Assembly: GCA_949297765.1 (NCBI GenBank)
Contig: CASFTV010000007.1
Coordinates: forward strand, 47,260 to 111,259
Direction of reading: 5' to 3'
DNA length: 64,000 bases
Source: an uncultured bacterium
GTDB lineage: Bacteria > Verrucomicrobiota > Lentisphaeria > Victivallales > UBA1829
Part shown: positions 7,499 through 61,686 of the stretch, piece by piece
Layout: the number at the start of each line of letters is the position of its first letter
Numbering within the stretch: the stretch's first letter is position 1
Made by a program: the position numbers and the translations under genes
Notes under the pieces: generated by a model
What the model was told of the DNA's origin: nothing
Databases searched by the model: none
The model's input: only the letters and a program-made list of their open reading frames with translations

Positions 7499-9154
7499 TC
7501 ACCGGTCCTGCGTCTGCTGCGCCATGTAGTTGCGGGTGTTCATCAGAATCCAGGTCTGGAACGCATTGTAGATGGCATACTGCTTGCCCTGTTTATAACT
7601 TTCGGACAGCGTGGCCTGGTTCTTCCGGACCGCTTCAGCATCCGGCGCAGTACGGGAAACGACAAACACCATGAATACGCCGTCGGGCAGCTCCATTGAG
7701 CGGGAAAGTTTTCCGGTTTCCGTTCCCGAAACCAGGCTCATGATGACCTGAGCGTTCTCTTTCGGCGGCTCCATCTGCGAAAACAGCGGCAGGGTCTTCA
7801 CCACCGCGCCTTTCGCCAGACCGGAAAGGGCCTTTGCGGGATCGGCGGACTTGTTCATTTCCAGAGCGAACGCGCGGGCCTTCTCCTGCGCCGCGGCAAG
7901 CGCCTTGTTGTTCAGATAGGTCTCACGGACTTTTGCGGCGACCGCCTTGTACTCGGACGGCACGGAAGGTTTCTTTTCCGAAAGAACCGCCACAAACACC
8001 GCGCGTTCGCCCTCCACCGACCGGGTGATCGGCGAACGTTCCGGCAGAGCGGCAACCGCCTCCACAAGACGCGGCTCACGACCGACATTGTCCATACCGG
8101 AATCCTGAGCGGTGAACCATCCGCTCTCCACCACCGGGATCTTCCGGCCTTCGGCCTGAGCGAGGAACGCTCCCGCATAGGCGGAAGGAGCGAGTTCCGC
8201 GGTAGCCTCGTAGAGAGCCTCCCGGAAATCGCGGCCCGCCTTCCGTGCGAGCTTCACAGCTTCTTCCTTCCGGAGCTTTTCGGTGATCTGTTTCTGAACG
8301 GAGGCAAACGGCGTGGTCTTTCCATCCTTGGTGAATTCCGCCTTGCTGGCGTCGTAGTATTTCTTCGCGGCGTCGGGCGCGAGTTTGACCTTGTCCATAT
8401 AGTCGGCATAGTTGAAGCGGACCACTTTCACCTTGAACTGCGGATCGGTCATGAACAGTTTCGGATTGGCTTTGTGGAAATTCTGCAGTTCCTCTTCGGT
8501 CGGTTTCAGCTGTTTTTTAGCGGCCTCGTACGGGAAGAGAATGGTTTTGACGCTGCAGCGCTCCAGCACGCTCCGTTCAAAATCGGCAATTTCATTTTCC
8601 GTGACAATCACATCGTTGACCGCGGAGTTCCCGAGCGAAAAAATGGTCAGCAGATTCCGGACCGCGTTATCAAGGTCCAGCGCGTTGTATCCGAGCGGCT
8701 GGAGCATCTCCTTTTCATATTTCTGATACTTTTCCAGACTGAACTTCCCGTCCGCCCCGGCGAAGGAGGGAAGCGAGCGCAGATATTCGCCGACGCGCTC
8801 CACGGAGACCGTCACGCCCATCTGTTTTGCGACCGACAGCAGCACCGCCTTCTGGAACGCCTCTTCCAGCGCCTGCTCGTCCAGGCCGTTCATCACGGGG
8901 CTGACGCCGTAATTGGCCGCCATAATCAGCATATTGTCCTTGACCATCTCCATCAGTTCGCCGCGGGTGATCTCCCGGTCGAACACGGTTCCCACCACGG
9001 CGTTCGGAGACATCGGATTCGTTCCGAACAGGATGTTCCCGCTCGCCCCCGGCGTGAAAAACCAGACAAACGAAATAATGATGATGGCGGTGAATGCGCC
9101 AAACATGATGCGGCTGTGCTTCAGCAGCACATTGTTCATTTTTGAAATGACCAT
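7499..9154 (-). CDS. PpiD/SurA-N-like periplasmic chaperone, membrane anchored
   Basis: Single N-terminal TM (FGAFTAIIIISFVWFF) followed by a long helical SurA_N/PpiD-like region. I could not see a parvulin signature. Confidence 0.55.
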   Translation of the reverse strand: MVISKMNNVLLKHSRIMFGAFTAIIIISFVWFFTPGASGNILFGTNPMSPNAVVGTVFDREITRGELMEMVKDNMLIMAANYGVSPVMNGLDEQALEEAFQKAVLLSVAKQMGVTVSVERVGEYLRSLPSFAGADGKFSLEKYQKYEKEMLQPLGYNALDLDNAVRNLLTIFSLGNSAVNDVIVTENEIADFERSVLERCSVKTILFPYEAAKKQLKPTEEELQNFHKANPKLFMTDPQFKVKVVRFNYADYMDKVKLAPDAAKKYYDASKAEFTKDGKTTPFASVQKQITEKLRKEEAVKLARKAGRDFREALYEATAELAPSAYAGAFLAQAEGRKIPVVESGWFTAQDSGMDNVGREPRLVEAVAALPERSPITRSVEGERAVFVAVLSEKKPSVPSEYKAVAAKVRETYLNNKALAAAQEKARAFALEMNKSADPAKALSGLAKGAVVKTLPLFSQMEPPKENAQVIMSLVSGTETGKLSRSMELPDGVFMVFVVSRTAPDAEAVRKNQATLSESYKQGKQYAIYNAFQTWILMNTRNYMAQQTQDR

Positions 9155-9311: not shown

Positions 9312-9340
9312 TTGACTTTTTCCCGATGATGTTGCATAAT
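9312..9340 (+). promoter_or_regulatory. Putative sigma70-type promoter for the GH-LacI-pilin operon
   Basis: TTGACT (9312-9317), a 17-nt spacer, then CATAAT (9335-9340). Followed by two ATTAAT palindromes 6 bp apart, a possible operator. Confidence 0.4.
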
Positions 9341-9382
9341 TAATATAGCAATTAATTTCTAAAACAGCAAAAGCGAGGTTTT

Positions 9383-11968
9383 ATGACACGGACATTCCCC
9401 CTTTCTCTCACATTCTGCGCGCTGCTGCTCGGAGGAACGCTGAGGGCCGCCCCGGACGCCGTTCCCGAGGGCTACCAGCCGTTCCCCCTGCAGTGGGACG
9501 ACACGCTCGCAGGAACCGCAACGGACGTTTCCTTCCTCAACGAAAAACCCGCCGGAAAAAACGGACGCCTGATCGTCCGCAATGGTCATTTCGCGGAAAG
9601 CGCCACCGGGAAACGGATCCGTCTGATCGGAATCGGGATCGGCGGCGATGCACTCTTCGAGATGGATCACGCGGCCGCGGAAAAGGTCGCGCGGCGTCTT
9701 GCAAAGGCCGGCGTCAACGTGGTCCGCTTCCACAATCTCGACGGTTCCGACCGCGACCGGGATACGCTCATTGACTTCAAACAGCCCGGGTCCGAACACT
9801 TCAATCTCAAACATCTCGACACGCTGGACTACTTTTTCGCCTGTCTGAAAAAAGAGGGGATCTACACCGTGATGGGCCTGAAGGTCAACCGGACCCTCCG
9901 GAACGGCGACGATCTCCCCGACGGCGTCAAAAAAGCCGGAAAACGGATCGACCGTTTCAACCGCGCATGGATCGAATCGCAGAAACGCTGGGCAAAGAAC
10001 CTTCTGACCCATCAGAATCCCTACACAAAGACGACTCTTGCGGAAGATCCCGCCGTTCTGAGCGTGGAACTCAACAACGAAAGTTCGCTTCTGTTCGAGA
10101 ATCTGAACTGGATCGACACGCTTCCCGCCCCCTATAAACGGGAGCTGACCGCACTCTGGAACGACTTTCTCTCCCGCCGCTACAAAACCGACAAAGCCCT
10201 CCTCGAAGCCTGGAACCGGGACACCATCCTTCCCGGCAGCTCCATTCTGAATCCGGAAGGCCGATGGACCTTTGAACAGCCGGACGCGCTGAATGTTCTC
10301 CGCAACAGCTCCGATTCGGTCTCGGCCGTTGTGAAACGCCGCAGCAGCCAGGACTGGCAGATTCAGTTCCAGCGCCCCGGACTCAGCCTTGAAAACGGAA
10401 AATCCTATACCCTGGAGTTCGATGCGCGCGGCGAAGGCGGACCGGTCCGCATCGTTCTGTCGCAGGACCGTCCCGAATGGCACAACTGCGGACTCGAAGC
10501 GACCTTCTCCCTCTCCCCCGGCTGGAAACATCACCGCTGCACCTTCCGGGCAAAGAATGCGGATCCCGGCCATGTCCGGATCTCGTTCGGCGTCGGGCAT
10601 GCGCGGAAGGCGGAAATCGCCGCGGTCCGCCTCTTTCCGGGGACGGAACCGGTTACCGCCCGCCTCTCCTCCGGCAATATTCCGCTTCCCGCCGCGCCGA
10701 ACGACGCCATGAGCGCCGATCTGCTGGACTTCATGGTCGAACTCGACACGCGCTATGCGGAGGAAATGCTGGATTACCTGCGGAAGGAACTCGGCCTGAA
10801 GAGCCTGGTGATCGACACTCAGATCGACTGGGGCGGACTTTCCGGACTCCGCCGGGAAAAACGGATGGACTATGTCGATGTCCACGCCTACTGGGGACAT
10901 CCGGAATTCACCGGGGGAAGCTGGGAATTCAAACCGGGATTCTGGAAGATTCTCAATCAGTCGCAGATTCCCCGAGTCGTACATGGCGGCTGGTGTCCGC
11001 TGGAGCAGTTCAGCCGCTACCGGATCCACACGAAACCTCTCTCCATTTCCGAGCACGACTATCCCTATCCGCACGACTATGCGGCGGAAATGATGCCGCT
11101 TCTGGTCAGTGTGGCTCTGCGGCAGGACTGGGACATGCTTCAGCTCTTCATTCACGGAACCTTCCTGACGCGCGGAAAATCCGCCGGCATCAGCCACATG
11201 TTCGATCAGACCAACCATCCCGGGAAAATCGGTTTTTTCCCGGCGGCGGCGCTGATCTTCCGGCGCGGCATGTTTGAACCGGCTCCGAGAGAGGTGGAAC
11301 TCCGTCTTCCGGAGACGCCGTGGCGCTGGTTCGGCAACCGTTTCGACCGGGCCTGGGCGGCGACCGGAGTCCGGCGGAATCTTCTGGACTCCCGGATGAC
11401 CATCGTCCCCGACGCGGTGAAAACTCCCGGACGAGTCGAAGCCTCGGTTTCCGCTCCCGATGAACCCCGCCGCCCGATGCGCGCATGGACCGAAGGAGAG
11501 AAAGCCTTCTTCACAGCGGTTGCCCCGCAGTGCATCGTTCTCTGCGGGCATTTCGGCGGACGGACAATGGACGTCGGCGATCTCCGTCTCCGGAGCCGTC
11601 CGTTCCCCGGCGATTTCGGAGCGGCGGTTCTGGTCTCCCGCGACGGGCATCCCCTTGCGGCTTCCTCCGACATTCTCTTCACAATCGCCGGCCGCTTCGA
11701 AAACTCCGGCGTCATCTGGAACAAGGAACGCAACGCCACCCTCAACCGCTCTCCGTGGTGGGGCAATCCTCCGGTTCTCGGCACAAAAACCGATGCGGAG
11801 GTCCGCTTCAGAACCGACGGTCCGCGCACGGTCTACGCTCTCGACTCCAACGGGAAGCGGACCGCGGAAGTTCCGTCCGCGTGGAAGGACAACCATCTCA
11901 CCTTCCATGTCCGTCCGGAACACCGTTCCATGCACTATGAAATCATCAGAGGAGGAAACCGCCGATGA
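9383..11968 (+). CDS. Secreted glycoside hydrolase, clan GH-A TIM-barrel type with an internal CBM-like insertion
   Basis: Signal peptide MTRTFPLSLTFCALLLGGTLRAAP. Motifs VNVVRFHNLD, VELNNES (acid/base NE) and SISEHDYP (candidate nucleophile). Homologous to the 31433..34504 product (GKxGRL, LKKEGIY, NPYT). Confidence 0.75.
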   Translation: MTRTFPLSLTFCALLLGGTLRAAPDAVPEGYQPFPLQWDDTLAGTATDVSFLNEKPAGKNGRLIVRNGHFAESATGKRIRLIGIGIGGDALFEMDHAAAEKVARRLAKAGVNVVRFHNLDGSDRDRDTLIDFKQPGSEHFNLKHLDTLDYFFACLKKEGIYTVMGLKVNRTLRNGDDLPDGVKKAGKRIDRFNRAWIESQKRWAKNLLTHQNPYTKTTLAEDPAVLSVELNNESSLLFENLNWIDTLPAPYKRELTALWNDFLSRRYKTDKALLEAWNRDTILPGSSILNPEGRWTFEQPDALNVLRNSSDSVSAVVKRRSSQDWQIQFQRPGLSLENGKSYTLEFDARGEGGPVRIVLSQDRPEWHNCGLEATFSLSPGWKHHRCTFRAKNADPGHVRISFGVGHARKAEIAAVRLFPGTEPVTARLSSGNIPLPAAPNDAMSADLLDFMVELDTRYAEEMLDYLRKELGLKSLVIDTQIDWGGLSGLRREKRMDYVDVHAYWGHPEFTGGSWEFKPGFWKILNQSQIPRVVHGGWCPLEQFSRYRIHTKPLSISEHDYPYPHDYAAEMMPLLVSVALRQDWDMLQLFIHGTFLTRGKSAGISHMFDQTNHPGKIGFFPAAALIFRRGMFEPAPREVELRLPETPWRWFGNRFDRAWAATGVRRNLLDSRMTIVPDAVKTPGRVEASVSAPDEPRRPMRAWTEGEKAFFTAVAPQCIVLCGHFGGRTMDVGDLRLRSRPFPGDFGAAVLVSRDGHPLAASSDILFTIAGRFENSGVIWNKERNATLNRSPWWGNPPVLGTKTDAEVRFRTDGPRTVYALDSNGKRTAEVPSAWKDNHLTFHVRPEHRSMHYEIIRGGNRR

Positions 11969-12999
11969 AAAGTCCCGCCCATCCGACCGGTGCTCTGAAA
12001 CGCATCGCCGAGGAAGCCGGCTGCTCCCCATCCACCGTAAGCCGGGTCCTCAACGGATGCCGGAAAGGCTTCTCGGTCCGCAAGGATCTGGAAGAACGCA
12101 TCCGCGCCGTTGCCGCCGCCTCCCACTACCAGCCGAATCCGTTTCTGAGGATCATGCGGGCAAAGGATTCCAGACTCATCGCGATCTTCGATCCGGTCCA
12201 CGACCTCTCGCCGATACTCGGACAGGCGAAAACCGCTTTTATTTCGACGATCCGGCAGAAAGGATTTCTGGAGACCGGAAAATACGTTTCGCTCTATCAG
12301 AAAGATTCCTATACGCTCCCCTTCCCTGTCGCGGCGGCGCTTCTGTTTGACATCAGCGATCCATCGTTTCTCTCGTTTCTGGAGGAACTTGGCATTCCCT
12401 ACACGGTCATCAACGGGATGTGCCGTTCCGGCGGAGCCTCGGTGCAGATCGACGAAGAACGGCACATGCACTCCGCTCTGGACTGTCTCTGCGAAAAAGG
12501 ACACACCCGCATCGCCTTCTACGCCGCCCACAGGGATGCGGGAACCCGCCATCAGCATTACTCCGGCATTCTGCGGGAAAAATACTTTCATGCGGAACTT
12601 GCCGCCCGCGGACTGCCCGAACCGCCGGAAGCGCTCGCGGATCTGCTGGACCCCGCCGAATATCTCATGCGGATCCGGAAGGAGTTTCAGCCGACGGCAA
12701 TCCTCTGCTACGATCATGTCCGGGCGGTCGGGATCATGACCGCGGCAATCCAGGCGGGACTCCGCCTCCCGGAGGATCTTTCGCTGCTTTCCATGACAGA
12801 CGACTTCCCCCTCGGCCAGCTTCCGATGCCGATCGCGGCATTCTCTCTTTTCGCCGCCCGGCTCGGAGAATGCGCCGCCGGACAGCTCTTCCGCCTTCTG
12901 GAGGAAACGCTCCCGGAAACGGAGCGGACCGTTCTCATCCGCGGACGTCTCCAGAAACGCCGCAGCATCGCCGAACCGAAAAAACAAATTTCCAAATGA
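11965..12999 (+). CDS. LacI family transcriptional regulator
   Basis: N-terminal [24 protein letters not shown] plus a PBP1-type sugar-binding body. ATGA overlap with the GH stop. Confidence 0.9.
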
Positions 13000-13013
13000 A
13001 AGGACCTGTCTTT

Positions 13014-13742
13014 ATGAAAATCCGTCATTTCACCCTTGTGGAACTCCTCGTTGTAATTGCGATCATCGCGATCCTTGCGGGGCTGCTTCTTCCCGCGCTG
13101 AATCAGGCGCGCGCCAAAGCCAGAACCATCAGCTGCGCCGGAAATCTGAAGCAGTTCGGCACCGCAACCACTCTCTACGCGAACGATTCCGCCGATTACG
13201 TTCCGCCTCTTTTCAACGCCACCAACTGGAAGGAGATCTGGAGCGCCAACACCGCGTTTTACGACGCGGGCGGAATCAAATGGGACAACACCCGTATGCC
13301 CAACGAATACAGCTACGGCTACGTCGCCCGCGGAATTCTCTGCGCGGAATCGGGACACATCCGGAAATCCCGCGATCCCTACGGATTCATCAACGCCGTC
13401 TACGGACGCAATGAACATCTTCCGACCAGCAACGGCTATGTGTGCGCCAAACTCACCCAGATCAAAGGCTCCTCGCACAAGCTCAACATGATGGACGCGA
13501 CCGTCCACTCCGTCGCCTACGGTCTGAGCCACTATCCGACCCGCTATGCGCAGGCCCTCGCCCAGGGCGGCGAAGACTTCTGGAACTCCTCCACCCGCGG
13601 AACGGCGTACCGGCACAGCGGAAGAACCAACGCGAACTTCTACGACGGACACGTCGAGCTCCTCCAGTGGACCAAAATCAACTACAACACCGACAACTCC
13701 TACAGCGGAGACAAAATTCAGAAATATTACTGGGAAATGTAA
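13014..13742 (+). CDS. Prepilin-type N-terminal domain protein with C-terminal H-X9-DG motif (DUF1559-like pseudopilin)
   Basis: [49 protein letters not shown], and C-terminal [14 protein letters not shown] (H-X9-DG). The alternative in-frame ATG at 12996 would give an ATGA overlap with the LacI stop. The track ORF 12420..13742 is a 5' over-extension. Confidence 0.85.
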
Positions 13743-14689: not shown

Positions 14690-15220
14690 TTATCGTTGAA
14701 ATACGGTTTTGTCGAGCAGAAGCAGACGTTTTTCCAGCCGCTCGCGCTCCGGACGTGTCAGCGAATTCAGGCGGAACAGGGAGGAATACTTCTCCCGCTC
14801 CGGGATGCCGACCCTCCCGACATGGAAGTCCGCATACAGGACATTCAGATGGCCGGAATGATTGGAAAAACGGTCGAACACGATCGGCGTATCGGGCGAA
14901 ATTCTCTTTGTTGAAAGCCCGTCGCCGAGGTAAATATAGTGAAGCTGCCTTGCCGGGCATCGGAACATTTCGACATCGAACGATTCCCCTTTTTCCGCCA
15001 GACGTTCCAGCGAATCCGGCAGAATGCCTCCATGAGCGGCCGCATACTGTTTCAGGGCTTTGCCGAGTCCGGAGAGATGCTCCGTGCACCGGAGATCGGT
15101 TTCCGCGGCATCGTCACCGCGATCCTCCGTCCTGCTCTGAAAAAAGAGAAAGCTGGCGATCGACGCGGCCAGCACCAGCACAACCGCGATTCCGTTCAAA
15201 AGCACACTGTTCCGTTTCAT
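14690..15220 (-). CDS. Membrane-anchored hypothetical protein with DUF1559/H-X9-DG-like body but no pilin N-terminus
   Basis: TM LLNGIAVVLVLAASIASFLFF. CTEHLSGLGKALKQYAAAHGGILP resembles the Cys-x-N-L-K-Q-x-G region of pseudopilins. HSGHLNVLYADFHV is H-X9-DF. ATGA overlap with the upstream gene. Confidence 0.6.
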   Translation of the reverse strand: MKRNSVLLNGIAVVLVLAASIASFLFFQSRTEDRGDDAAETDLRCTEHLSGLGKALKQYAAAHGGILPDSLERLAEKGESFDVEMFRCPARQLHYIYLGDGLSTKRISPDTPIVFDRFSNHSGHLNVLYADFHVGRVGIPEREKYSSLFRLNSLTRPERERLEKRLLLLDKTVFQR

Positions 15221-26699: not shown

Positions 26700-28280
26700 A
26701 TGAAAATGATCCGAACAGTATTGCTTTCTCTGTTTCTGGCAGGAATTGCGGGAGGCGCGGAGAAGGAGTTGAAACCGTTTCTTGCCGGAGACAGTCTGAA
26801 GAACTGGACCCTCACGGAATACAGTCGATGGATCTCGCTTCCGGACGGAGAGACCGGCCTTGAGATCCGGATTCCGCAGGATGCAACGCTCCGGAACATC
26901 ACCTACGGAGCGTACCGGAATCTGGATCTGCGCGCTTACCGGGGAAAACAGATTGTGATTTCCGCCACTGTCAGCGCCCGGGATATTCCCGTGCGAAAGG
27001 AGGGATTCCGGTGTGTCAAGATCATGATCTATCATCAGGGGGAAACGGGAAAACGTTATGAATCCAGCTCCTTCCGTCTGTGGGGAACGCTGGAAAACAC
27101 CCGTCTGGAGCTTGCGTTTTCCGTTCCGAAGGATGTCGGGAAAAACATGCTGATGGTGGGAATCCAGAACAACAGCGGACTCCTTCTGTTCCGCGATCTG
27201 AAACTGGAGGAGAGGGATTTTTATCCGGCGCCGGTTCCTCTTCCGGAAAATTTCCGCTGCGAGTATTCCGAAGCGGTCCGGAATGCACCGCGTCTGCGCG
27301 GAGCCGGGCTGCTTTCGAAATCCACTCGCGAGGATGCGGAATCGCTGGCGCAGAACGGGGCGAATCTTGCGCGCTGGTGGATCCGCTACGACAGCAGCGA
27401 TGCTTCGCTGGCCAGTCTGAACAGGACCCTGGACCGGCTGGAAGCCTTTCTGCCGGAGTATGAAAAACTGAATCTGAAGGTCATTCCGGTTCTTCAGGAC
27501 GTTCCGGGCAGCCGATTTGCAACACCGCTTCTCCTCGGGATTGATCCGGCATCCGAGAAGGCGAAGAACGAAAGCAACTTCCGTCTGTTTTTCGATCGGA
27601 AGCATCTGGAGACTTATGTACGGATCTGGGAAACGATCGCGCGCCGGTTCAAGGATTCGCCTGTCGTTTACGGATACAGCGTGATGAATGAGCCTTCGCA
27701 GTTCGGGCAGGTTCCGTTCAATTATCTGTACTGTCAGTATCTTGCCGCGAAGGCGATCCGAGGAATTGATCCGGAAAAACCGGTTTTCATCGCCGCGAAC
27801 AGCTGGGACAAAGCGGAAGCATTTGCCTATCTGAAACCGCTGCCGCTCAAAAACATCATCTATGAAGTTCACATGTACACGCCCCACTCCTATACGCATC
27901 AGGGGGTCGGCGATTCGATTGAGAACATCCGGCGAGGAAAATTTCAGTCCTATCCCGGAAAGATCGGTGATACGGTCTACAATCGCTCTGTTCTCCGGAA
28001 GAGCCTTCAGCCGGTCGTGGATTTCCAGAAAAAATATGGAGCGAAAATCTACTGCGGGGAATTTTCCGTGATTCGCTGGGCGCCGGGCGGAGCGCAGTAT
28101 CTGGAGGATCTCTGCTCCATTTTTGAAGAACTCGGCTGGGACTGGGCGTACCACTGTCACCGGGAGTGGATCAACTGGAGCTTTGAGCATCCGGACACCT
28201 TCGGCGACGACAAGCCGGCAAAGGAACCGACCGGCCGTCAGAAGGTCCTCCGCAAATACTGGGCGAAAAACAAGCGCTGA
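26700..28280 (+). CDS. Secreted glycoside hydrolase family 5-like enzyme with N-terminal CBM-like domain
   Basis: ATG at 26700 after an AAGGAG SD (MKMIRTVLLSLFLAGIAGGAEKE signal). VMNEPSQ (acid/base) and IYCGEFSVIRW (nucleophile) motifs. Confidence 0.85.
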   Translation: MKMIRTVLLSLFLAGIAGGAEKELKPFLAGDSLKNWTLTEYSRWISLPDGETGLEIRIPQDATLRNITYGAYRNLDLRAYRGKQIVISATVSARDIPVRKEGFRCVKIMIYHQGETGKRYESSSFRLWGTLENTRLELAFSVPKDVGKNMLMVGIQNNSGLLLFRDLKLEERDFYPAPVPLPENFRCEYSEAVRNAPRLRGAGLLSKSTREDAESLAQNGANLARWWIRYDSSDASLASLNRTLDRLEAFLPEYEKLNLKVIPVLQDVPGSRFATPLLLGIDPASEKAKNESNFRLFFDRKHLETYVRIWETIARRFKDSPVVYGYSVMNEPSQFGQVPFNYLYCQYLAAKAIRGIDPEKPVFIAANSWDKAEAFAYLKPLPLKNIIYEVHMYTPHSYTHQGVGDSIENIRRGKFQSYPGKIGDTVYNRSVLRKSLQPVVDFQKKYGAKIYCGEFSVIRWAPGGAQYLEDLCSIFEELGWDWAYHCHREWINWSFEHPDTFGDDKPAKEPTGRQKVLRKYWAKNKR

Positions 28281-28302
28281 CGACACAGAAAGGAGCAACG
28301 CG

Positions 28303-29355
28303 ATGACAGAGATTGTTCCAGAATATCTGCGTGTGCGAAAATATCTCTATGATCTTGTTTACCGGAACGACGGCAGGGATCTGCGGATTCCGCCGGAAAA
28401 CGAGCTGGCGCGTCTTTTCGGCGTGAGCCGGGTCACGGTCCGGAGCGCGATCCGCGGACTGGTGGATGACAGCATTCTTGTTTCGCGCCGGGGACTCGGA
28501 ACCTTCATCAATCCGGATGCGATCCGGAAAGACTGCCGGAGACTTCCGGTCATCGGCATTCTTTTCGGCGACGGACGCCAGACGTATCTCCCAACGGACC
28601 AGCAGATTTCCGCCGCCGTTCAGAACTCCGGCATGCTGGCGGAAGCGCTCCACACCCCCGACTCCGGCGCTCCGGAGCGGCTGGTCGAAATCATCCGCGA
28701 CAACATTGCCGCCGTGATCTGGCAGCTGCCGTCCCGAAAGATGGAACCCTTTTTCCGTGCCATCCGGGCCGCCGGGAAACCTCTGCTGATTTACGGAAAC
28801 GGTTTTGAAAACGAATTTGACACCATCCGGAACGCCTGTGCGGAGCGCGGCATTCTTCTGGCGGAACATCTAGCCCGGATGGGGCATCGGCATCTTCTTT
28901 ACATCCACAATGCCCTCTCTTCCGAGATCGACCGGCCCGAATCGCCGGAAACGACCTCCGGAAGTTTCGCCCGCCGGATCCGCAAGCTCACAGGAGCGAA
29001 ATTTGACGGATTCCTTTCTCTGAACGAACTGGACGAACGTCTCTCCCGGCGGGGGCTCGGGAAGTATACGGTTCTTTATTCCTCCGCGACACTTGTCCGC
29101 CCGATTCTGGAAATTCTGGAACGGGAACACATCCGCATCCCGGAGGATCTTTCCTGTATCACGGCCTGGAAACCGCTCTCCTTTTTCTTTCAGGGGCGCT
29201 CTTCCGCGTATCTGGACTGTGACTGCAATCTTCCTGAACTCGTTGCGGAATGGATCCAGCGAAAAGTTCTCAACGGGGAAAAGGAGATTTTTCTGCGGAC
29301 TCCGGAATCCATTCTCCACGAAGGCGAAACCTTGATTCCGAATACGAAACCTTGA
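28303..29355 (+). CDS. GntR-type HTH regulator fused to a PBP1 (LacI-like) sugar-binding domain
   Basis: Trimmed to the ATG at 28303 ([19 protein letters not shown]). HTH is [31 protein letters not shown]. Confidence 0.85.
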
Positions 29356-29364
29356 TTCCGAATA
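29325..29364 (+). repeat. Perfect tandem duplication, 2 x 20 bp CGAAACCTTGATTCCGAATA
   Basis: Read directly. Spans the last codons and the stop of the GntR gene. The stop TGA (29353-29355) lies in copy 2. Confidence 0.95.
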
Positions 29365-29383
29365 CATGAAAAGGAGAACATTT

Positions 29384-30148
29384 ATGAAACGGATATTTTC
29401 ATTGATCGAGCTTTTAGTTGTTGTTGCAGTAATCTCAATTCTTATTTCTCTTCTTATTCCGGCCTTGAACGGGGCAAGAGGGAAAGCGTACGAACTGAGC
29501 TGCAAATCCAATTTGAAGATGATCGGGACGGCATCCGCGTCCTACAGCGCCGACAACAACGACTGGATCGTCTATGTCTACGATTCCGCATGGATGGCGA
29601 ACTGGCGCGTCGAGGATTACTGGACAGGGAAACTGCGTCCCTACGGGCTCCGGCACGGGAAGGACCTGACGGAATGCAGGAATCCAGAAATTACCTCCTC
29701 GTTCCGCTGTCCCGGATATTCGGACTGGCGGACAGCAGAAGATCCCGCGACAGCCGGCTACTTTCTTTCCACCTCTTCCCAATATTCTCTCAGCCCCTAT
29801 CTCTGCGGGCGGCACACCAGCGCGCTCAATCAGAGTTATGCGCATAAGAATACGGATTTGCAAACACCAAGTCAGGCACTCTTCGCAGGAGAGAGTCTTC
29901 TTTCTCTTGATTCCCTGCAGGGAACGTATTCGTTGTATTACAGGCATGGCGGCGGAGATCCCCGTCCGAAGACTTCCGATACGGTGTATAATGATTATCT
30001 CTCGTTTATTCCCGGAAAGGCCAATGTCGTTTATGCGGACGGTCATGTTGCAGTTCGCACATACCGTCTGGATGAAAACCGCTGGCTGCCGCTGACCAAG
30101 AACGGGTTTTACGGAAATTCCAACACCAGCCGGGGATCCAGGCTGTAA
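29384..30148 (+). CDS. Prepilin-type N-terminal domain protein, DUF1559/H-X9-DG-like pseudopilin
   Basis: ATG at 29384 after an [57 protein letters not shown]-terminal RHGGG...[13 protein letters not shown], where the H..DG spacing is expanded to about 30 residues. Confidence 0.85.
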
Positions 30149-30172
30149 GGGAATGGGGGGTGGAAGACGGGG

Positions 30173-30275
30173 TGGGGAGTTTCGCCCTTCGGGCGACCAG
30201 CGTATTCCGCTGGACCGAAGCAGGTCAAAGACCTGCACCGAGCCTGCGGCTCCTGCCCTGCGGGCGGTTTTTTTT
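30173..30275 (+). repeat. Multi-hairpin repeat element, copy B; 3' hairpin plus T8 acts as terminator of the pilin gene
   Basis: GAGTTTCG-[CGCCC TTC GGGCG]-A-[CCAGCG TATTC CGCTGG]-ACCGAA-[GCAGGTC AAA GACCTGC]-ACC-[GAGCC TGC GGCTC]-CT-[GCCC TGC GGGC]-GG-T8. Confidence 0.7.
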
Positions 30276-30386
30276 AGTTTTTTGTATATGTTTTTAGTTA
30301 TTGGAATGTTTTTTTCGGAGAGAAGAGAGTTTTTTCTGTCGGGTCGGGTATAGTATGGGAGAACCATCCAACGGAAAGGATTGAAA

Positions 30387-31277
30387 ATGAAAGAATTTCA
30401 GGTGAAAGACCATGCGGAGAGTTTTCTGCCGGAAGACAAAAACTGGAAACTGGTCTGGAGTGATGAATTCGACGGCACGGAACTGGATCGCAGCAAATGG
30501 GGATTTCGTCTTAATTTCTGGGGAAAACGTTTTCCCGCCTTCACGGACGAGGGAGTTGTGCTGGACGGGAAAAGTCATCTCCAGCTGCATCTTCTGAAGA
30601 AGGACGGGATTTTCTGTTCCCCGCATCTTCAGACGGGTTCTCTGACGTATGATATTCCGAAGGATTCTAATGGATTCTGGCCGTTCGGGAAATATGAAGA
30701 ACCGAAATTCATGCACAAATTCGGCTATTATGAGATTCGCTGCCGTCTTCCGAAATGCGATGGATGGCATTCGGCGTTCTGGCTCCAGTCCCCTTCCGTG
30801 GGTGCGCATCCGGATCCGAGACGTGCCGGAGTCGAATGCGACATCATGGAAAACTACCGGCAGTACAAGGACGGCAAACTCATCGGCGGCAATCTCTGGG
30901 GAGGCTACGGCAAAAACTACAAAGGTTCCGGCCATTTCTCCTGGGACTGGCAGGAAACGGAAGACGGATGGCACTACTACGGCGTTGACTGGAGTCCCGA
31001 CGGCTACCGCTTCTATGCAGACAGAAAACTCATTGGTGTCGTTCTTCCTCCGGAGAAGGCCCATCTGAAGCAAATCGTCAAAGAAAAAGAAGGGTCCAGC
31101 TTCCTGCGGGAAGGCAGCATCAGTGTCGGCCCGGTCTCGGAAACAGAACAATTCATTCTGATCTCCACAGAATGCCATGGCTACCGGGAAACAGGAACCT
31201 ATACACCTCTCCTGGACCAGGCGGTCCTCCCCGATTACTTTGAAATTGACCACGTCCGCGTGTTCGACAAAGTCTGA
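30387..31277 (+). CDS. GH16-like (ConA-like lectin/glucanase fold) glycoside hydrolase, paralog A, no signal peptide
   Basis: ATG at 30387; the track start at 30381 is TTG. LVWSDEFDG, YGYYEIRCRLP and the catalytic-type motif GVECDIME (ExDxxE). Confidence 0.8.
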   Translation: MKEFQVKDHAESFLPEDKNWKLVWSDEFDGTELDRSKWGFRLNFWGKRFPAFTDEGVVLDGKSHLQLHLLKKDGIFCSPHLQTGSLTYDIPKDSNGFWPFGKYEEPKFMHKFGYYEIRCRLPKCDGWHSAFWLQSPSVGAHPDPRRAGVECDIMENYRQYKDGKLIGGNLWGGYGKNYKGSGHFSWDWQETEDGWHYYGVDWSPDGYRFYADRKLIGVVLPPEKAHLKQIVKEKEGSSFLREGSISVGPVSETEQFILISTECHGYRETGTYTPLLDQAVLPDYFEIDHVRVFDKV

Positions 31278-31432: not shown

Positions 31433-34400
31433 TCATTCCAGGACCAGTTCAAAGAAAGGAGTCGGACCATATCGAAGTGCAGCGGTATCCAGATGAACCC
31501 GCACGCCGTCCGGCGAGGACGTAAGCGCAACTTCCTCCCGGCGACTGCCGTTGATTCCAAGCGCATGGAGTTTCCAACTTCCGTGACGGCGAATGCTCAG
31601 TTCCAGAATCCCGGTCCGGGCAAGAGCCGGAGCGGATCCGATGGAGAAAAGAGTTGCGCGATTTGCTGCAAGACACATTCCGCTGTTTGCCTCTTCCGTC
31701 AGGAACAGAATCACGATTCTGCGGCTTTGGGAAAGCGGCATTCCATCAACGGAACAAAGAGCAATGCAGCCGTTTACGGAGTTCCGTCTCACGGCAAACG
31801 TTTTCAAATCCGCCACCCCTCCCGCCGTCATGCACACAGCCTCTGAGCGGGGAGTAATGATGCTCATCCGCTTTTCTCCGGCACGGAGAATCAATTCCAG
31901 CGTATCACTCTGGAAAATTCCCTTTTCCGGATCGGAAATATTTTGTGGAGAAAGGATTCCTTTTCTTTTCATTTCCTTCACTATGCGTGAGAGGGAAAAG
32001 ATTCCGCTGCCGGATTCCGCAAACTGGGAAAACCAGTCCTGCGCCTGAATTTCAGAGCTTCCGGAGATCGGGATCATCAGATCGGTCCTTGGATGCGCCG
32101 ACGTTCCCTGAGCGGCGGGTCTCTCCGGGAAGACAAGTCCATAGCCGGCAAGAAGACCGAGACTGGCCTGAGAGGCGGAAACCGCTTTCTCCGCATGGGA
32201 ACCTCGCTTCAGAAATTCGTTCGGCACCATCACAGAGAGCAGATGCGGAGAGGGCTTCACATCGCCTCGCTGAAACAGACACGCCATCAGGAACTGCGAA
32301 GCGCGCAGCAGCGGGGAATTTCCGACTCCGAAGCAGGAGATCTTTTCCATTTTCGTCTCGTTGAGCAGAACCGGAAGCGCATGAACTTCCAGAGCACCAT
32401 ATCCCTGAAGAGCGGAATAACCGCCGAATACCATTCCGGATTCATAGCGGAAGGGGTTCCAGAAACAGTGATTGTATTCTCCGACCAGGAAGGGGCGACC
32501 AGCCAGTTTCGTTGAATTTGCCTCCTTCCAGTATCCGGTTTTCTCTTCGATGGAGCTGCTTGCCCCGACAATGGACCCCCTCTGCATCCAGTGCGTGGGA
32601 TGGTTGAAATAGGCGTGGCCGTCGACGACCTGGGAGCATGTCCATCGGGCGGCGGAGTGACCAAGATTTTTGGATGCGCTGTAATTGCTGACCAGTCCAC
32701 GGTAACCGGTCTTCCGAATGATCTCTTCGCACCGCTTTGCAACAGCTTCCGCGCGATCCATCCAGAAGAGGGCGAAATCATTGGCGCCCCTGTCATCATC
32801 CGTTCCGGCAGTCAAAGGGATTTCCGCATCGGGCATGGATTTCCCATATTTTTTTGCGAGCCACGCGCGCCAGAACGTCAACAGCCGTTCGCGGACTTCC
32901 GAATCGGTCCGCAGCAGATTCTGCATCTGCCCCTTCAGGAGTCCCATAGCCTGTTCGTTATAATATTCGACCCAGGCGATCGCAGGCTCATCCTTCCAGG
33001 CCAGACCGGTATAGGGATTCACATGGTTGAAGAGCGTATTGACCGCATAGCGGAAATGGTTCATCTCCCATTCGCCTTCGAGATACATCATCAGCTTATG
33101 CCGGTTTCGGTCCTTGTAGACGTCGATTCCCGATTTCTGATACAGATGGAAGGAAAAGATCACCAGATGAAGATAGATCCCCTCCTTTTTCAGTTCGGAA
33201 ACCAGATAATCCCAACGATCCAGATAACGGGGATTGATAGACATATCTTCTTTCGAACCGTGACAGAGCCAGCGGTCCAGAAGTCCATGCACACGAAAGA
33301 GCCGATATCCCTGTCGTCGTGCAGCTCGGGCGAAACGTCCGGCCCGCTCCCGGAACAGAGCATCGGATTCCGATTCGAAAAGCCCTTTTGCTTCATTGAA
33401 CCCCAGCATCCGGACAGGCTGATCGGGAGTGTCTTCAAACACGAGTTTGCCCTCTTCCGATATGGTGAGGCGGCCCGATTTTCCGGCAGGCGCCTCCACC
33501 TGTCCGGAAAGATCCAGTGCGGAACCCGGCAGAATCTCCGGTGCCGTCATCTGATATTGTTTCCATCCATTTCTCCCATTCCGGAAAACGACGGGCTCGC
33601 GCGGAGCGCCGCAGCAGAATCCCCATCCACCCGATCCGGCCCGAACAACGGCGACCAGCAGATTTTCCCCTTTCTTCACCGGGAAATCCTCAAAGCAGTG
33701 ATCCGGAGAAAACGGCTTGGTACCCGTGGAGGAAAGAACCCGAACTCCGTTCAGATAGATGTCAAAGAACCAGTCTGCGGAAAATCCGATCCGCATCACC
33801 CCCTCTTTCCGGCTCTGGAAACGGTTGTAAAGGACCGCAACGGAGCGATCCGGCTGAAATTTCCAGGAATTATATTTTCGGAAATCAATCCCCTTGTCCG
33901 TCATGAGAACTCGGAGCGGACTTTTTCCATTCAGGCGTTCCGGAATCCGATCGAGCACCGAAGGACCTTTTACATCGCAGAAAATGGTCCATTCGGAGGA
34001 GAGGGCAAACGGAATTCCGGGAACCTCCTCCAGACGGATGGCGGAAAACGTGCTTTTCCCGGGAAGACGGCAGAAGTTGAACGTCATCAGTCCTGGGGCG
34101 CCATCGGTTGACCGGGCGACGAACTCCGTTTTCAGCGAATGCGTCCCGGCATCCAGCGTCCAGTTTTCCGCCAGACCGCAGGGATTGTACGGACTCTTCG
34201 CCTTTTGATAAACCGCGCGGAAGACCCCTTTTTCCCGGCATTCGATCCGGAATGAAAGCCGGTACCGCTTCCCTGGTTGGAGCATGACGGATTGACTCAG
34301 CAGGCCCCCTCCGCCATAGGGGGAAAGATCGCGGGGGACATTGGCTGCCAGAGATTTTCCAACTGCCTGAAACACGCGTGAGTTTCCCGACCATTCGGCG

Positions 34401-34504
34401 ATTCCACGCGAGAAATCGGTATTTTTCAGAAGATTTTCTTCCGTCCATCCTCTTCCGGCCAGCAGAAGCAAGACGAGGACTGGCAATAAACGGGATACAA
34501 TCAT
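31433..34504 (-). CDS. Secreted multidomain glycoside hydrolase (N-terminal CBM-like domain plus clan GH-A barrel), paralogous family to 9383..11968
   Basis: Trimmed to the ATG at 34504 (MIVSRLLPVLVLLLLAGRGWTEEN signal). WVEYYNEQ (acid/base NE) and FLVGEYNHC (candidate nucleophile). Shares GKSGRL, LKKEGIY and NPYT with the 9383 product. Confidence 0.75.
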   Translation of the reverse strand: MIVSRLLPVLVLLLLAGRGWTEENLLKNTDFSRGIAEWSGNSRVFQAVGKSLAANVPRDLSPYGGGGLLSQSVMLQPGKRYRLSFRIECREKGVFRAVYQKAKSPYNPCGLAENWTLDAGTHSLKTEFVARSTDGAPGLMTFNFCRLPGKSTFSAIRLEEVPGIPFALSSEWTIFCDVKGPSVLDRIPERLNGKSPLRVLMTDKGIDFRKYNSWKFQPDRSVAVLYNRFQSRKEGVMRIGFSADWFFDIYLNGVRVLSSTGTKPFSPDHCFEDFPVKKGENLLVAVVRAGSGGWGFCCGAPREPVVFRNGRNGWKQYQMTAPEILPGSALDLSGQVEAPAGKSGRLTISEEGKLVFEDTPDQPVRMLGFNEAKGLFESESDALFRERAGRFARAARRQGYRLFRVHGLLDRWLCHGSKEDMSINPRYLDRWDYLVSELKKEGIYLHLVIFSFHLYQKSGIDVYKDRNRHKLMMYLEGEWEMNHFRYAVNTLFNHVNPYTGLAWKDEPAIAWVEYYNEQAMGLLKGQMQNLLRTDSEVRERLLTFWRAWLAKKYGKSMPDAEIPLTAGTDDDRGANDFALFWMDRAEAVAKRCEEIIRKTGYRGLVSNYSASKNLGHSAARWTCSQVVDGHAYFNHPTHWMQRGSIVGASSSIEEKTGYWKEANSTKLAGRPFLVGEYNHCFWNPFRYESGMVFGGYSALQGYGALEVHALPVLLNETKMEKISCFGVGNSPLLRASQFLMACLFQRGDVKPSPHLLSVMVPNEFLKRGSHAEKAVSASQASLGLLAGYGLVFPERPAAQGTSAHPRTDLMIPISGSSEIQAQDWFSQFAESGSGIFSLSRIVKEMKRKGILSPQNISDPEKGIFQSDTLELILRAGEKRMSIITPRSEAVCMTAGGVADLKTFAVRRNSVNGCIALCSVDGMPLSQSRRIVILFLTEEANSGMCLAANRATLFSIGSAPALARTGILELSIRRHGSWKLHALGINGSRREEVALTSSPDGVRVHLDTAALRYGPTPFFELVLE

Positions 34505-34544
34505 GCAAGGATCCTTTCTTTTTCTATCGGTGTTTCGATTGAAT

Positions 34545-35321
34545 TCAGTAAATTTTGATTCCGTCCCGGCTGTATATCCCGTCGGTCCGGACGTTCGACC
34601 GGTCGACAAGATCACTGACATTCGCGGAACGGGCACTTCCGTCGAGCGTCAGGATATTGGCCCGTCCGGTATGCAGAAGAGCGATTTTCCCGTCTCCGGA
34701 AGCGATATAGTTCATCATATGCTTTCCTGCGCTTGAAGCCGATGCTGAAGAGCCGGCATAGATGCTGTCTGCCAGCAGAATGGTGAGTGAAGGCTGCTTC
34801 ACCGGAAGATAAGCCGCTCCGGATCTCCCGATCCGGCTGCGTTTCACCAGAGTTCTCGGGTTCCAGGCAGTGCTGAGATAAGAGTTCATCCCGTAGGTCT
34901 GGCGGCCGGCCGGATTGACATAGGCGCTCTCCGACGGCGTGTATGGAAAGGATGGGCAGTTGAACACTTTCATTTGTGCCGCCTTCCGGGTTTCTGACAC
35001 GCTGGAATCCTCAAACAGCGCCCGTTGTGATGGAACGGAATGGAGAAACAGGATGGTCGCATAGGTGTATCCCGAATACCAGTCCGTTCCGGAAGACATC
35101 TCGAAACCGTTTCCTTTTGGGGAATTCGGCGGCGGAATGAAATCATCGAAATCATTGGCATAATTTTCAAAGAACACGCCACACTGTTTCAAATGGGAAG
35201 TACAGTTGATCGCTTTTGCTTTTTCCCGGGATTTCCCCAGAGCCGGAAGCAGAAGAGCTATAAGGATCGCAAGGACTGCTATTACGATCAGCAATTCTAT
35301 AAGAGTAAAAATATTTCGCAT
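34545..35321 (-). CDS. Prepilin-type N-terminal domain protein with H-X9-DG motif (pseudopilin)
   Basis: Trimmed to the ATG at 35321. [49 protein letters not shown]-terminal [14 protein letters not shown] is H-X9-DG. Confidence 0.85.
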
Positions 35322-35483
35322 GCTTCCGGAAAGAGTTGAAGGAACTCTGTTCTGTTTGCAGACGATCATTTTCTCCGCACTTATTCCGGAAATTTTTCGG
35401 ATTGGTAGCTTCATCATTTTTCCTTTCGTGAAGAGTTTTCCGTTGCAGATTCTTCCCATCCCTGTCAGAGAAGAGCGTTCTTC

Positions 35484-36383
35484 TCAGATTTCATCAAAAA
35501 CGCGGACATGATCCACTTCAAAGAAGTCCGGAAAATTCACGGTTTCCAGAAGGGGATCATGCTGTCCGTTTTCGCGATATCCATGACACTCCGTGGAGAC
35601 GAGTATAAACTGCTCGGCATCGGAGATCGGTCCGACGGCGACTCCTCCTTCCTTCAGCCAGCAGGGGTTGTCTTCCTGTTCCCGGACTGCGGTTTTCCGA
35701 TCGGCGTATTCCGGCGGGACGATGGTACCGACCAGTTTCCGATCGGCAAAGAAGCGGTAGCCGTCGGGACTCCAGTCAACGCCGTAGTAGTGCCATCCAT
35801 CTTCCGTTTCCTTCCAATCCCAGGAGAAATGTCCGGAGAAGGCATGGGATTTTCCATACCCGTTCCAATGATTTCCGGCGACAACTTTGCCATCACCGCA
35901 GATGCGGCAGCTTTCCATGATGTCGCATTCGACCCCGGCATGTCGCGGATCCGGATGCGCTCCGACGGAAGGCGACTGAAGCCAGAACGCGGCATGCCAT
36001 CCGCATCCGCCGGATTTCGGCAGACGGCAGCGGATCTCGTAATAGCCATATTTATGCATGAATCTCGGCTGTTCCAGCTCGCCGAAGGGCCAGAATCCGT
36101 CAGAGTCCTTCGGGAGATCGTATGTGAGAGAACCGGTCTGGAGATGCGGGGAGTAAAAATCGTTTCCCTTCCGGATCAGATGAAGACGCAGATGGCTGTT
36201 GCCATCAAGTTCAACGCCCTCCGTAGTGAATGTCGGGAAACGTTTCCCCCAGAAATTAAGACGAAATCCCCATTTGCTGCGATCCAGTTCCGTGCCGTCG
36301 AATTCATCACTCCAGACCAGTTTCCAGTTTTTGTCTTCCGGCAGATAACTCTCTGCATGATTTTCCAGTTTGAATAATTTCAT
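35484..36383 (-). CDS. GH16-like glycoside hydrolase, paralog B, no signal peptide
   Basis: Trimmed to the ATG at 36383 (MKLFKLENHAESYLPEDKNWKLVWSDEFDG). GVECDIME motif. About three quarters of residues are identical to paralog A by eye. Confidence 0.8.
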   Translation of the reverse strand: MKLFKLENHAESYLPEDKNWKLVWSDEFDGTELDRSKWGFRLNFWGKRFPTFTTEGVELDGNSHLRLHLIRKGNDFYSPHLQTGSLTYDLPKDSDGFWPFGELEQPRFMHKYGYYEIRCRLPKSGGCGWHAAFWLQSPSVGAHPDPRHAGVECDIMESCRICGDGKVVAGNHWNGYGKSHAFSGHFSWDWKETEDGWHYYGVDWSPDGYRFFADRKLVGTIVPPEYADRKTAVREQEDNPCWLKEGGVAVGPISDAEQFILVSTECHGYRENGQHDPLLETVNFPDFFEVDHVRVFDEI

Positions 36384-36483
36384 TGAATTCCTTTCTTTCG
36401 ATTTCTTTGATATCGACAGCATACATGGAAGTTCTCGATGCGCAGCGGCTTTCATCCGATCTCCCGATTCTGTGCCGAATTTC

Positions 36484-36497
36484 TGTATAATTATACA
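36484..36497. promoter_or_regulatory. Perfect 14-bp palindrome TGTATAATTATACA containing TATAAT on both strands
   Basis: Read directly. Lies in the divergent GH16B / AraC intergenic region. The -35 matches on both sides are poor. Confidence 0.35.
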
Positions 36498-36623
36498 CTT
36501 TTTTTTCCGTTCTGCATAGAGGATTTCTGCCAAATAAACAGTAATTTTCTGCCATTTATGATTGATTTTTCTAAAATGAAGGATAAATTGAATTAAAACT
36601 TAAAAAGATGTTGGGATAAATGA

Positions 36624-52886: not shown

Positions 52887-52887
52887 A

Positions 52888-60857: not shown

Positions 60858-60879
60858 ATGACAGGAAGGAACTGCTGCA

Positions 60880-61671: not shown

Positions 61672-61686
61672 GGAGAGACGGGAATC

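Follow-up and report, generated by a model that had tools for sequence, protein, structure and literature searches.

A conserved glycoside hydrolase-LacI-pilin block in a Victivallales genome, a candidate glycan operon with its own pilin-like gene

Results and discussion

A 64-kb stretch of DNA from an uncultured gut bacterium of the order Victivallales (Lentisphaerota; the whole stretch is called the window below) contains a compact block of three genes on its forward strand. They encode an exported glycoside hydrolase (GH), a LacI-family repressor and a type IV pilin-like protein of the H-X9-DG/DUF1559 family, and we refer to them together as module 1 (Table 1). We suggest that the block may represent a three-gene glycan operon that is induced by its substrate and controlled by its own repressor. 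Its pilin would then act as a locus-specific subunit of a filament, or of a machine resembling a type II secretion system (T2SS), encoded elsewhere in the genome. Judging from sequence comparisons and structure models, we give this explanation about even chances. The evidence comes from conservation of the block in related genomes, from the organization of its upstream region, and from repeated association of similar pilin genes with sugar regulators and glycanases.

A self-contained and conserved three-gene unit

All coordinates of open reading frames (ORFs) given in the initial annotation of this DNA are correct, and the three genes are co-directional, with ATGA overlaps at both junctions. 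The GH gene ends with CGC CGA TGA, so that ATGA at 11965-11968 is common to its stop codon and to the LacI start codon. The LacI gene ends with AAA TGA (stop codon 12997-12999) and is overlapped by ATG 12996 of the pilin frame. The classical pilin start, ATG 13014 (MKIRH/FTLVELL) with AAGGA just 5´ of it, is located 18 nt further in the same frame. Both overlaps and the position of the classical start had been described before and were reproduced here. Since a divergent PpiD/SurA-like gene (7499-9154, minus strand, intergenic region of 228 bp) borders the block upstream and a convergent metallo-beta-lactamase-fold gene (minus strand, ending at 13770) borders it downstream, the block is a self-contained three-gene unit.

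The initial annotation named conservation in related genomes as a check of the triad, and the same gene order was found at the orthologous loci L001, L081 and L083/L084. The closest copy, L001, belongs to the human-gut metagenome-assembled genome (MAG) UMGS1084 and is 89% (GH), 91% (LacI) and 87% (pilin) identical to the proteins of the window. Corresponding values are 69%, 62% and 58% for L081, and 62%, 56% and 49% for L083/L084. At all these loci the junctions overlap or are separated by no more than about 50 nt, and the flanking genes are wholly different each time. Because order and tight junctions persist amid unrelated flanks, we take the tight packing of the triad to be more than chance. 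Expression of the three genes as a unit, as proposed initially, is supported by the conserved order, by the unrelated flanks and by the position of the sole promoter-like site upstream of the GH gene. In one respect the earlier description has to be changed. The triad had been presented as a single oddity; instead, it exemplifies an architecture that is lineage-wide, and the window alone holds three such modules.

A promoter bracketed by two palindromes

A consensus scan of the plus strand between positions 9000 and 14200 found one sigma70-like match near the block, at 9312-9340, and no promoter-like site inside it. The promoter hexamers align across the orthologous loci, where the -10 hexamer CATAAT of the window reads TATAAT. 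The promoter is flanked by two operator-like palindromes, O1 and O2, whose consensus is an 18-bp palindrome TTAGCAA-N4-TTGCTAA. In an alignment of upstream regions of four loci (the window, L001, L081 and L083), the promoter and both palindromes form conserved islands and the rest has diverged. The distance between O1 and O2 is 58 bp in the window, 58 bp in L001, 59 bp in L081 and 66 bp in L083. When up to three mismatches are allowed, O1 and O2 are the only two matches in the window; with up to two mismatches, the palindrome occurs in 1.76 Mb of fetched DNA only as a pair, which precedes the GH gene of the window and of the orthologous loci.

The palindrome pair is thus likely to be the cognate operator to which LacI would bind. 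As the two sites are conserved, restricted to this locus and bracket the promoter, they would form an operator pair by which LacI occludes the promoter of its own gene. Terminator-like hairpins around the block are not more numerous than expected from shuffled sequences. A hairpin with a 7-bp stem and the tail CTCTCTTTTC is present at 12825-12842 (plus strand) towards the 3´ end of lacI, with about 170 nt left to the start of the pilin gene.

The enzyme and its repressor

The initial annotation spoke of a secreted GH. The kind of protein was recognized correctly and no family could be assigned to it; the word secreted goes back to its N-terminus, MTRTFPLSLTFCALLLGGTLRAA, which was judged by eye to be a Sec signal peptide. 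The sole Pfam match of the enzyme is to CBM_4_9, a carbohydrate-binding module (CBM), and it is sub-threshold (23.8 bits vs cut-off of 25.9). The GH5 model PF00150 matches some homologues but not the module 1 enzyme, and other homologues match PF02449/GH42. Among 32 homologues (30-89% identity), the putative catalytic residues Asn232-Glu233 and Glu557 are invariant. The AlphaFold2 (AF2) model, with a predicted local distance difference test score (pLDDT) of 89.8, contains a (beta/alpha)8 barrel split by a beta-sandwich at about 295-420 and followed by C-terminal beta-sandwich domains. Comparison with PDB by Foldseek and by profile retrieved CBM4 modules including 1gui (E 3e-10 and 1.5e-15) as well as the GH5 mannanases/mannosidases 1rh9, 3pz9 and 4lyp (profile E 6e-7). 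Clan GH-A is characterized by such a barrel, by the acid/base of an Asn-Glu (NE) motif on strand 4 and by a nucleophilic Glu on strand 7; the barrel of the model aligns to GH5 mannanases and mannosidases, and the corresponding residues are the invariant ones named above. We regard the protein, on the strength of sequence and model, as an exported clan GH-A glycanase with a CBM4-like module built into its barrel, and we call it GH5-like rather than GH5 because PF00150 gives no match to it.

This GH family is widespread, with 590 or more genome loci found, the majority of them in Armatimonadota, Verrucomicrobiota, Planctomycetota and Lentisphaerota. In Oligosphaera (L073, 5653-7254) and in a Lentisphaeria MAG (L075, 5261-6959), two pilin genes directly precede a GH homologue.

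The repressor is an ordinary, bona fide member of the LacI/GalR family. Both expected domains are found, HTH_LacI (PF00356, 37.3 bits vs cut-off of 27, residues 11-58) and the effector domain Peripla_BP_3 (PF13377, 84.7 bits vs cut-off of 26.5, residues 173-334). None of the NCBIfam equivalog models reaches its cut-off for this protein, so its effector is not assigned by model.

The third protein has a pilin fold

Product of the third gene carries a short basic leader, a hydrophobic alpha1N segment, a CxxLKQ region and a C-terminal H-X9-DG-H strand-turn; its mature part would have about 237 amino acids. Residues F+1, L+3, E+5, C41, C110, H201 and D211 are invariant across 72 relatives, and G212 and H213 nearly so. 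The family model PF07596/DUF1559 matches with 26.8 bits (cut-off 23.3) and covers only profile positions 2-31, that is, the N-terminal part. The model of the prepilin N-terminal domain, TIGR02532, gives 20.1 bits (cut-off 16.3), whereas the dedicated H-X9-DG model TIGR04294 stays with 11.7 bits below its cut-off of 19. Among NCBIfam models, GspG and ComGC match the N-terminus best. In the AF2 model (pLDDT 94), a 51-residue alpha1 helix (residues 8-58) packs on a small alpha/beta head. The structural neighbors in PDB are full-length type IV pilins only, and they are weak (FimA 3sok, E 0.17, TM-score 0.51 on target). On the basis of the model we are confident that the third protein has a genuine type IV pilin or pseudopilin fold.

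Pfam files DUF1559 as "SBP_bac_10", and the name solute-binding protein (SBP) is repeated in papers (PMC2754498, PMC4807772). This label is unsupported here, since the model shows a pilin fold and gives no SBP match; identity of the protein as an SBP is ruled out by the same result, the two-lobed fold being absent.

An anomaly of the pilin signal is the residue at -1. It is His in the module 1 pilin (13026-13028) and Ile in the other two pilins of the window (29393-29395; 35309-35307). Gly stands there in 5 of the 72 close relatives, in which Asn, His, Arg, Ser, Lys and Ile are the commonest residues; pilin relatives from Armatimonadota and planctomycetes keep Gly or Ala. The Victivallales branch of H-X9-DG pilins has lost Gly at -1. 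Gly at this position is normally required by peptidases of the PilD type. On the other hand, pilus structures tell that F+1 and E+5 matter only for a processed, polymerizing subunit. Their invariance in all 72 relatives argues for filament assembly, and it is for this reason that we favor, as an unproven possibility, a peptidase with relaxed -1 specificity over an uncleaved pilin.

The alternative is that the protein forms no filament and remains uncleaved in the inner membrane, anchored by its hydrophobic helix, where it would bind oligosaccharides on the periplasmic side and hand them over. The missing Gly or Ala in most Victivallales relatives would then be easily understood. Gram-positive loci place an SBP gene after the LacI gene, just where the pilin gene is found here. 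Besides the Pfam name, there is also a precedent of sugar-binding proteins with pilin-type signals (PMC3047682). Such a receptor is nevertheless difficult to reconcile with a pilin fold in place of two lobes and with the lack of ABC permease and ATPase genes in all three modules of the window. From what is known of pilus biology, strict invariance of F+1 and E+5 would be expected only with cleavage and filament packing, and the Armatimonadota and planctomycete members of regulator-pilin pairs (see below) have the canonical Gly or Ala. We consider the envelope receptor unlikely, yet not so much that it should be neglected.

Three modules in one window

The window holds three pilin genes, each of which is part of a carbohydrate module and touches a GH gene. 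Module 2 has the order GH5, regulator with GntR-type helix-turn-helix and Peripla_BP_3 domain, pilin and GH16; its measurable gaps are 10-28 nt. In module 3, on the opposite strand, a GH16 gene is followed by the pilin gene and by a gene for a large exported protein without Pfam match (an ORF of 1067 amino acids, about 1023 from the likely start at 34504), and an AraC regulator is encoded divergently. The large protein and the module 1 GH are distant paralogues, with 29% identity over half of the barrel and the NE motif kept. The three pilins have their first 60-70 residues in common (48-57% identity) and their heads cannot be aligned by BLAST. Phe, Trp and Tyr make up 14-15% of the globular part.

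The GH16 paralogues of modules 2 and 3 (30387-31277, plus strand; 36383-35484, minus strand) are 72% identical as proteins and lie inverted about 4 kb apart. An obvious signal peptide is missing from both, although one would expect it in enzymes encoded next to exported partners.

As the initial annotation stated, no pilus or T2SS machinery is encoded nearby: among the approximately 45 larger ORFs scanned in the window, there is no match to GspD/E/F, PilB/C/Q or prepilin peptidase families. Pfam families of SusC-like (TonB-dependent) transporters and SusD-like proteins are likewise absent from the three modules and the other scanned ORFs.

These observations bear on another explanation, in which the pilin is a cargo-specific T2SS pseudopilin and serves as an adaptor: it would recognize the GH once Sec has delivered it to the periplasm, and would then move it through the outer membrane or tether it on the surface. 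The enzyme has a predicted signal peptide and needs a route through the outer membrane; it is co-conserved and presumably co-expressed with the pilin. The pilin N-terminus matches GspG and ComGC, and database names of its relatives include "type II secretion system protein". Moreover, a marine planctomycete up-regulated 28 secretion-system proteins on fucoidan (PMC11685898). What does not fit is the stoichiometry of the loci, which usually have one pilin but one to three enzymes (GH5 and GH16 in module 2; GH123 and fucosidase at L086), together with the lack of signal peptides in both pilin-adjacent GH16 paralogues. Classical T2SSs secrete many cargoes with a single set of pseudopilins, and the matches to GspG span just the common N-terminal helix. 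Secretion of a dedicated cargo is therefore, in our opinion, an improbable role of the pilin that still deserves serious attention.

Regulator-pilin pairs in other genomes

Seven pilin relatives were chosen solely for lying on long contigs, with their context disregarded. Six of them adjoin a GH gene (GH123 and fucosidase, GH2, GH3 and GH16, GH5) or a gene for a Pfam-less protein of 900-1300 amino acids, and three directly follow a regulator of the LacI type or of the GntR type with a periplasmic-binding-protein domain. The seventh, the L088 pilin (P0115, 6001-6735), is a very prevalent sequence, indexed in 334 assembly-collection blocks, and its gene lies not in a sugar locus but among housekeeping genes for acetyl-CoA carboxylase, RNase PH and DnaX. 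It is a candidate for a constitutive or major subunit of the presumed common filament.

At the loci collected around GH genes, 11 of about 17 distinct LacI-type regulators are directly followed by a pilin gene on the same strand. Such pairs were found in Lentisphaerota (two in the window, further in L001, L081 and L083), in the planctomycete L005, and in Armatimonadota (three cases in L022, one each in L026, L072 and L076), where the order is LacI, pilin and GH. In the cross-phylum pairs, LacI is 22-27% identical to that of the window, and stop and start codons of regulator and pilin often overlap. This low identity, together with pilin likeness limited to the N-terminal helix, rules out a recent transfer of one cassette across phyla. 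What is conserved across phyla is the regulator-pilin pair and not the module 1 GH.

A sample centered on pilins was taken from metagenomes and comprised 64 pilin genes with at least 1.1 kb of upstream DNA. A LacI-type regulator lies directly upstream of eight of them. If pilins are sorted by the -1 residues listed for each locus, the regulator precedes 7 of 19 pilins with residues other than Gly or Ala. Downstream neighbors across the broad family, tallied for 34 metagenomic pilins, include CBM9, GH42, GH123, GH14, LamG, esterases and CarboxypepD_reg, and also housekeeping genes. The census of Pfam neighbors is so heterogeneous that a link to carbohydrate-active enzymes cannot be generalized to all DUF1559 proteins. 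Pilins are thus strongly associated with glycan loci within the Victivallales-type branch and some Armatimonadota, but this does not extend to every DUF1559 protein.

Pilins of the Victivallales type repeatedly precede genes for proteins of 800-1300 amino acids (L085 6974-10891, L087 6732-10049, L091 6842-9520, L093 5723-8194, L101 765-3908, L116 1257-4109, L120 5675-8692). Those of L085, L087 and L091 have no Pfam match on record and the scan of the L093 protein gave none. They are probably uncharacterized families of glycan-active enzymes. Their membership in the module 1 GH family was considered and rejected, because the profile of that family gave a single weak match among the large Pfam-less proteins behind metagenomic pilins, and this match covers the CBM part only. 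Some metagenomic and genomic loci contain tandem arrays of two to five H-X9-DG pilin genes, for example L149 (3100-7671).

Could the pilin gene be just an incidental neighbor, that is, a member of a numerous family which landed beside GH and lacI genes without any meaning, or a decaying paralogue? The family is huge indeed, with more than 7,900 hits among 8,000 candidates, and planctomycete genomes contain 68-74 paralogues each (PMC10632474, PMC2754498). Some relatives, like that of L088, also reside among housekeeping genes. The triad is nevertheless kept down to 49% pilin identity despite changed flanks; the ORF is intact, with all family-invariant residues and a confidently predicted fold; all three pilins of the window touch a GH gene; and adjacency of regulator and pilin exceeds many-fold the base rate of LacI-type genes, which is 1-2.5%. 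Incidental neighborhood is thus already disfavored and we find it very hard to believe.

The recurrent pair could alternatively reflect signaling. The pilin would sense extracellular or periplasmic glycan from its position in the membrane and modulate LacI or another regulator. Conservation of the pair across phyla and the frequent overlap of its stop and start codons are in agreement with this idea, and the inner-membrane pilin pool of Caulobacter is reported to act as a signal (PMC7196804). But the predicted cytoplasmic part of the pilin has only about 5-11 residues, and the repressor needs no co-sensor because Peripla_BP_3 provides an effector pocket of its own. Furthermore, pilins pair with GntR- and AraC-type regulators as well, or with none. 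We see very little room for a signaling role.

A possible model of the operon

In the explanation that we prefer, LacI would bind both palindromes in the absence of inducer and shut off GH, LacI and pilin at once. An oligosaccharide or sugar derived from the target glycan would lift the repression. From what we infer to be a single transcript, the GH would be produced and leave the cytoplasm via Sec as a GH5-like retaining glycanase. The pilin, presumably processed and polymerized, would plug into one common type IV filament or T2SS-like machine, which we place elsewhere in the genome because machinery genes are absent from the window. There it would make the machine specific for the glycan of its locus, which it would bind or haul at the envelope as polymer or in fragments. 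If the pilin supplies such specificity, each glycan locus should therefore carry a pilin of its own, just as every locus of this kind in Bacteroidota has a SusC/SusD pair. Within this explanation, we rank first the capture or hand-over of a glycan ligand by the pilin head, because there is one pilin per locus whatever the number of enzymes, because the GH16 enzymes lack signal peptides, and because the head is rich in aromatic residues.

Several observations weigh against this model. Distant homologues of the GH (30-37% identity) mostly occur without pilin and LacI genes, either of them being adjacent at about 10 of 80 loci; the same count excludes that the GH family carries both everywhere. 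Over the DUF1559 family as a whole the link is less tight: only 1 of 45 pilins with canonical Gly or Ala at -1 in the metagenomic sample follows a LacI-type gene (same tally as above), and the downstream neighbors of 34 metagenomic pilins are heterogeneous. With respect to transcription, terminator-like hairpins within lacI, such as that at 12825-12842, could serve as attenuators lowering read-through into the pilin gene, and a weak internal promoter may have escaped the consensus scan. One would not expect an abundant structural subunit to be coupled translationally to a preceding repressor gene. Due to His at -1, the pilin may stay unprocessed or depend on an unusual peptidase. We have to assume the partner machine, as neither its genes nor a prepilin peptidase gene are in the window. 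Finally, the conserved His, Asp, His and Cys residues look structural and nothing marks a glycan-binding site.

A bolder version of the model extends it to the whole family. H-X9-DG/DUF1559 pilins would be exchangeable parts, either subunits or tips, with which a retractile type IV filament or pseudopilus acquires specificity for a glycan. By means of such hooks, Victivallales, and probably other members of the Planctomycetes-Verrucomicrobia-Chlamydiae (PVC) group and Armatimonadota that lack SusC/D, would capture polysaccharides and draw them into the periplasm, and every catabolic locus would supply a hook of its own under its own sugar-responsive repressor. This extension is tentative and we would sooner doubt it than accept it.

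Other features of the window

SecY of the window shares 95% identity with its counterpart in a MAG named "Victivallales bacterium". Apart from the three modules, sugar-catabolic modules without the pilin architecture abound in the window. It includes a further LacI gene without adjoining pilin (48300-49262, plus strand), further AraC regulators at 50651-51682 and 53731-54618, and two pairs of ThuA and GFO/IDH/MocA oxidoreductase genes (51804-53643, minus strand; 60006-62751, plus strand), one of them accompanied by a gene for a xylose-isomerase-like TIM barrel protein. An ORF of 176 amino acids at 14690-15220 (minus strand) has an ordinary N-terminal membrane helix in place of FTLIELL. It contains weak echoes of DUF1559 signatures (C-x-HL-x-LG-x-AL-x-YA and H-SGHLNVLYA-DF-HV; profile score of 8 bits) and may be a degenerate relative of the family that is not of the pilin type.

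Table 1. Features of module 1, its upstream region and the two other pilin-containing modules (positions in the window)
Feature	Position	Strand	Remark
Operator-like palindrome O1, TTAGAAATTTATTGCTAA	9287-9304		8 bp upstream of the -35 hexamer
Sigma70-like promoter, TTGACT-17-CATAAT	9312-9340	+	10 of 12 consensus matches; conserved in orthologous loci
Operator-like palindrome O2, ATAGCAATTAATTTCTAA	9345-9362		Just past -10, over the expected transcription start
Shine-Dalgarno-like GAGG	9375-9378	+	4 nt 5´ of the GH start codon; read from sequence
Exported GH, ORF	9383-11968	+	861 amino acids; residues 1 to about 23 signal-peptide-like
LacI-family repressor, ORF	11965-12999	+	344 amino acids; HTH_LacI and Peripla_BP_3 effector domain
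Pilin-like H-X9-DG/DUF1559 protein, ORF	12996 or 13014 to 13742	+	Two in-frame candidate ATGs
Class III-type signal and alpha1N segment	13029-13094	+	F+1 and E+5 invariant in 72/72 relatives
H-X9-DG motif	13614-13649	+	His201...Asp211-Gly212, then His213; literal motif
Module 2	26700-31277	+	GH5, GntR-HTH/Peripla_BP_3 regulator, pilin, GH16
Module 2, GH5	26700-28280	+	
Module 2, regulator	28303-29355	+	
Module 2, pilin	29384-30148	+	
Module 2, GH16	30387-31277	+	
Module 3	31433-37514	-	GH16, pilin, GH paralogue
Module 3, GH16	36383-35484	-	
Module 3, pilin	35321-34545	-	
Module 3, GH paralogue	34504-31433	-	
Module 3, AraC regulator	36624-37514	+	Divergent

Comparison with known systems and significance

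Few paralogous families of Planctomycetota, Lentisphaerota, Verrucomicrobiota and Armatimonadota are as large as that of the DUF1559/H-X9-DG proteins. In one planctomycete there are 68 copies, and two of these are essential (PMC10632474). We found no functional study of the family in the literature; the papers that we found call it "unknown" or "solute-binding", and none of them describes the systematic pairing of the pilin with sugar regulators and glycanases. At the same time, binding and import of polysaccharides in bacteria without SusC/D is an acknowledged open question (PMC12673574, PMC5148204). Players in fibre-associated uptake of a polysaccharide (dextran) in Planctomycetota are still unknown (PMC12673574), and Kiritimatiella is devoid of TonB-dependent uptake systems (PMC5148204). 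By means of comparative evidence, our finding connects a very large orphan family with polysaccharide use by gut and environmental PVC bacteria and Armatimonadota, a defined role that can be tested. For annotators, the pilin is a practical marker of glycan-utilization loci in gut Victivallales. If the pilins were truly glycan hooks, the largest orphan paralogue family of PVC bacteria would represent the missing receptor layer of "selfish" polysaccharide uptake, and the fibres proposed for dextran uptake in planctomycetes would have a name.

Enzyme and LacI-family repressor in one autoregulated unit, as we presume it for module 1, are known from celC-glyR3-licA of Clostridium thermocellum (PMC5483248) and from polysaccharide utilization loci (PULs) of Gram-positive bacteria. 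Palindromic operators (candidates in our case) overlap the promoter in LacI/GalR-controlled glycanase operons too, with a sugar as presumed inducer. Unlike in those operons, the third gene here encodes a pilin fold and not an SBP of an ABC transporter, a permease or a second enzyme; two candidate operators bracket the promoter; and the host is a diderm PVC bacterium. With PULs of Bacteroidota, the modules share a regulator of their own, enzymes, a fast-diverging locus-specific envelope protein and the occurrence of many paralogous loci per genome. They differ in having no SusC/SusD and in an envelope component that is pilin-like and would depend on a machine encoded elsewhere.

From T2SS pseudopilins GspG-K and type IV pilins, the protein has the basic leader, F+1, E+5, the long alpha1 and the small alpha/beta head. 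The idea of a specialized subunit that gives ligand specificity to a common filament is familiar from minor pilins, and a functional precedent exists in Fibrobacter succinogenes, where type IV pilins are implicated in adherence to cellulose (PMC3079729). In contrast to these systems, the gene lies outside any gsp or pil cluster, within a sugar operon; -1 is His and not Gly; no solved structure is closely related to the head (best Foldseek E 0.17); and paralogues are very numerous, roughly one for each catabolic locus. Compared with the H-X9-DG/DUF1559 family of PVC bacteria, the prepilin-type N-terminus, CxxLKQ region and H-X9-DG-H are the same and they appear here in a defined regulatory and catabolic context. 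The bindosome of Sulfolobus (PMC3047682) is similar in that proteins for sugar acquisition have pilin-type N-termini and their assembly system is encoded elsewhere. Its proteins, however, have SBP folds of the ABC type with about 400-700 amino acids and are accompanied by ABC transporters, whereas the locus described here combines a pilin fold of 237 amino acids with no transporter. Taken together, the operon logic is ordinary, and we found no paper that describes its third component or how systematically this component is paired with sugar regulators and glycanases.

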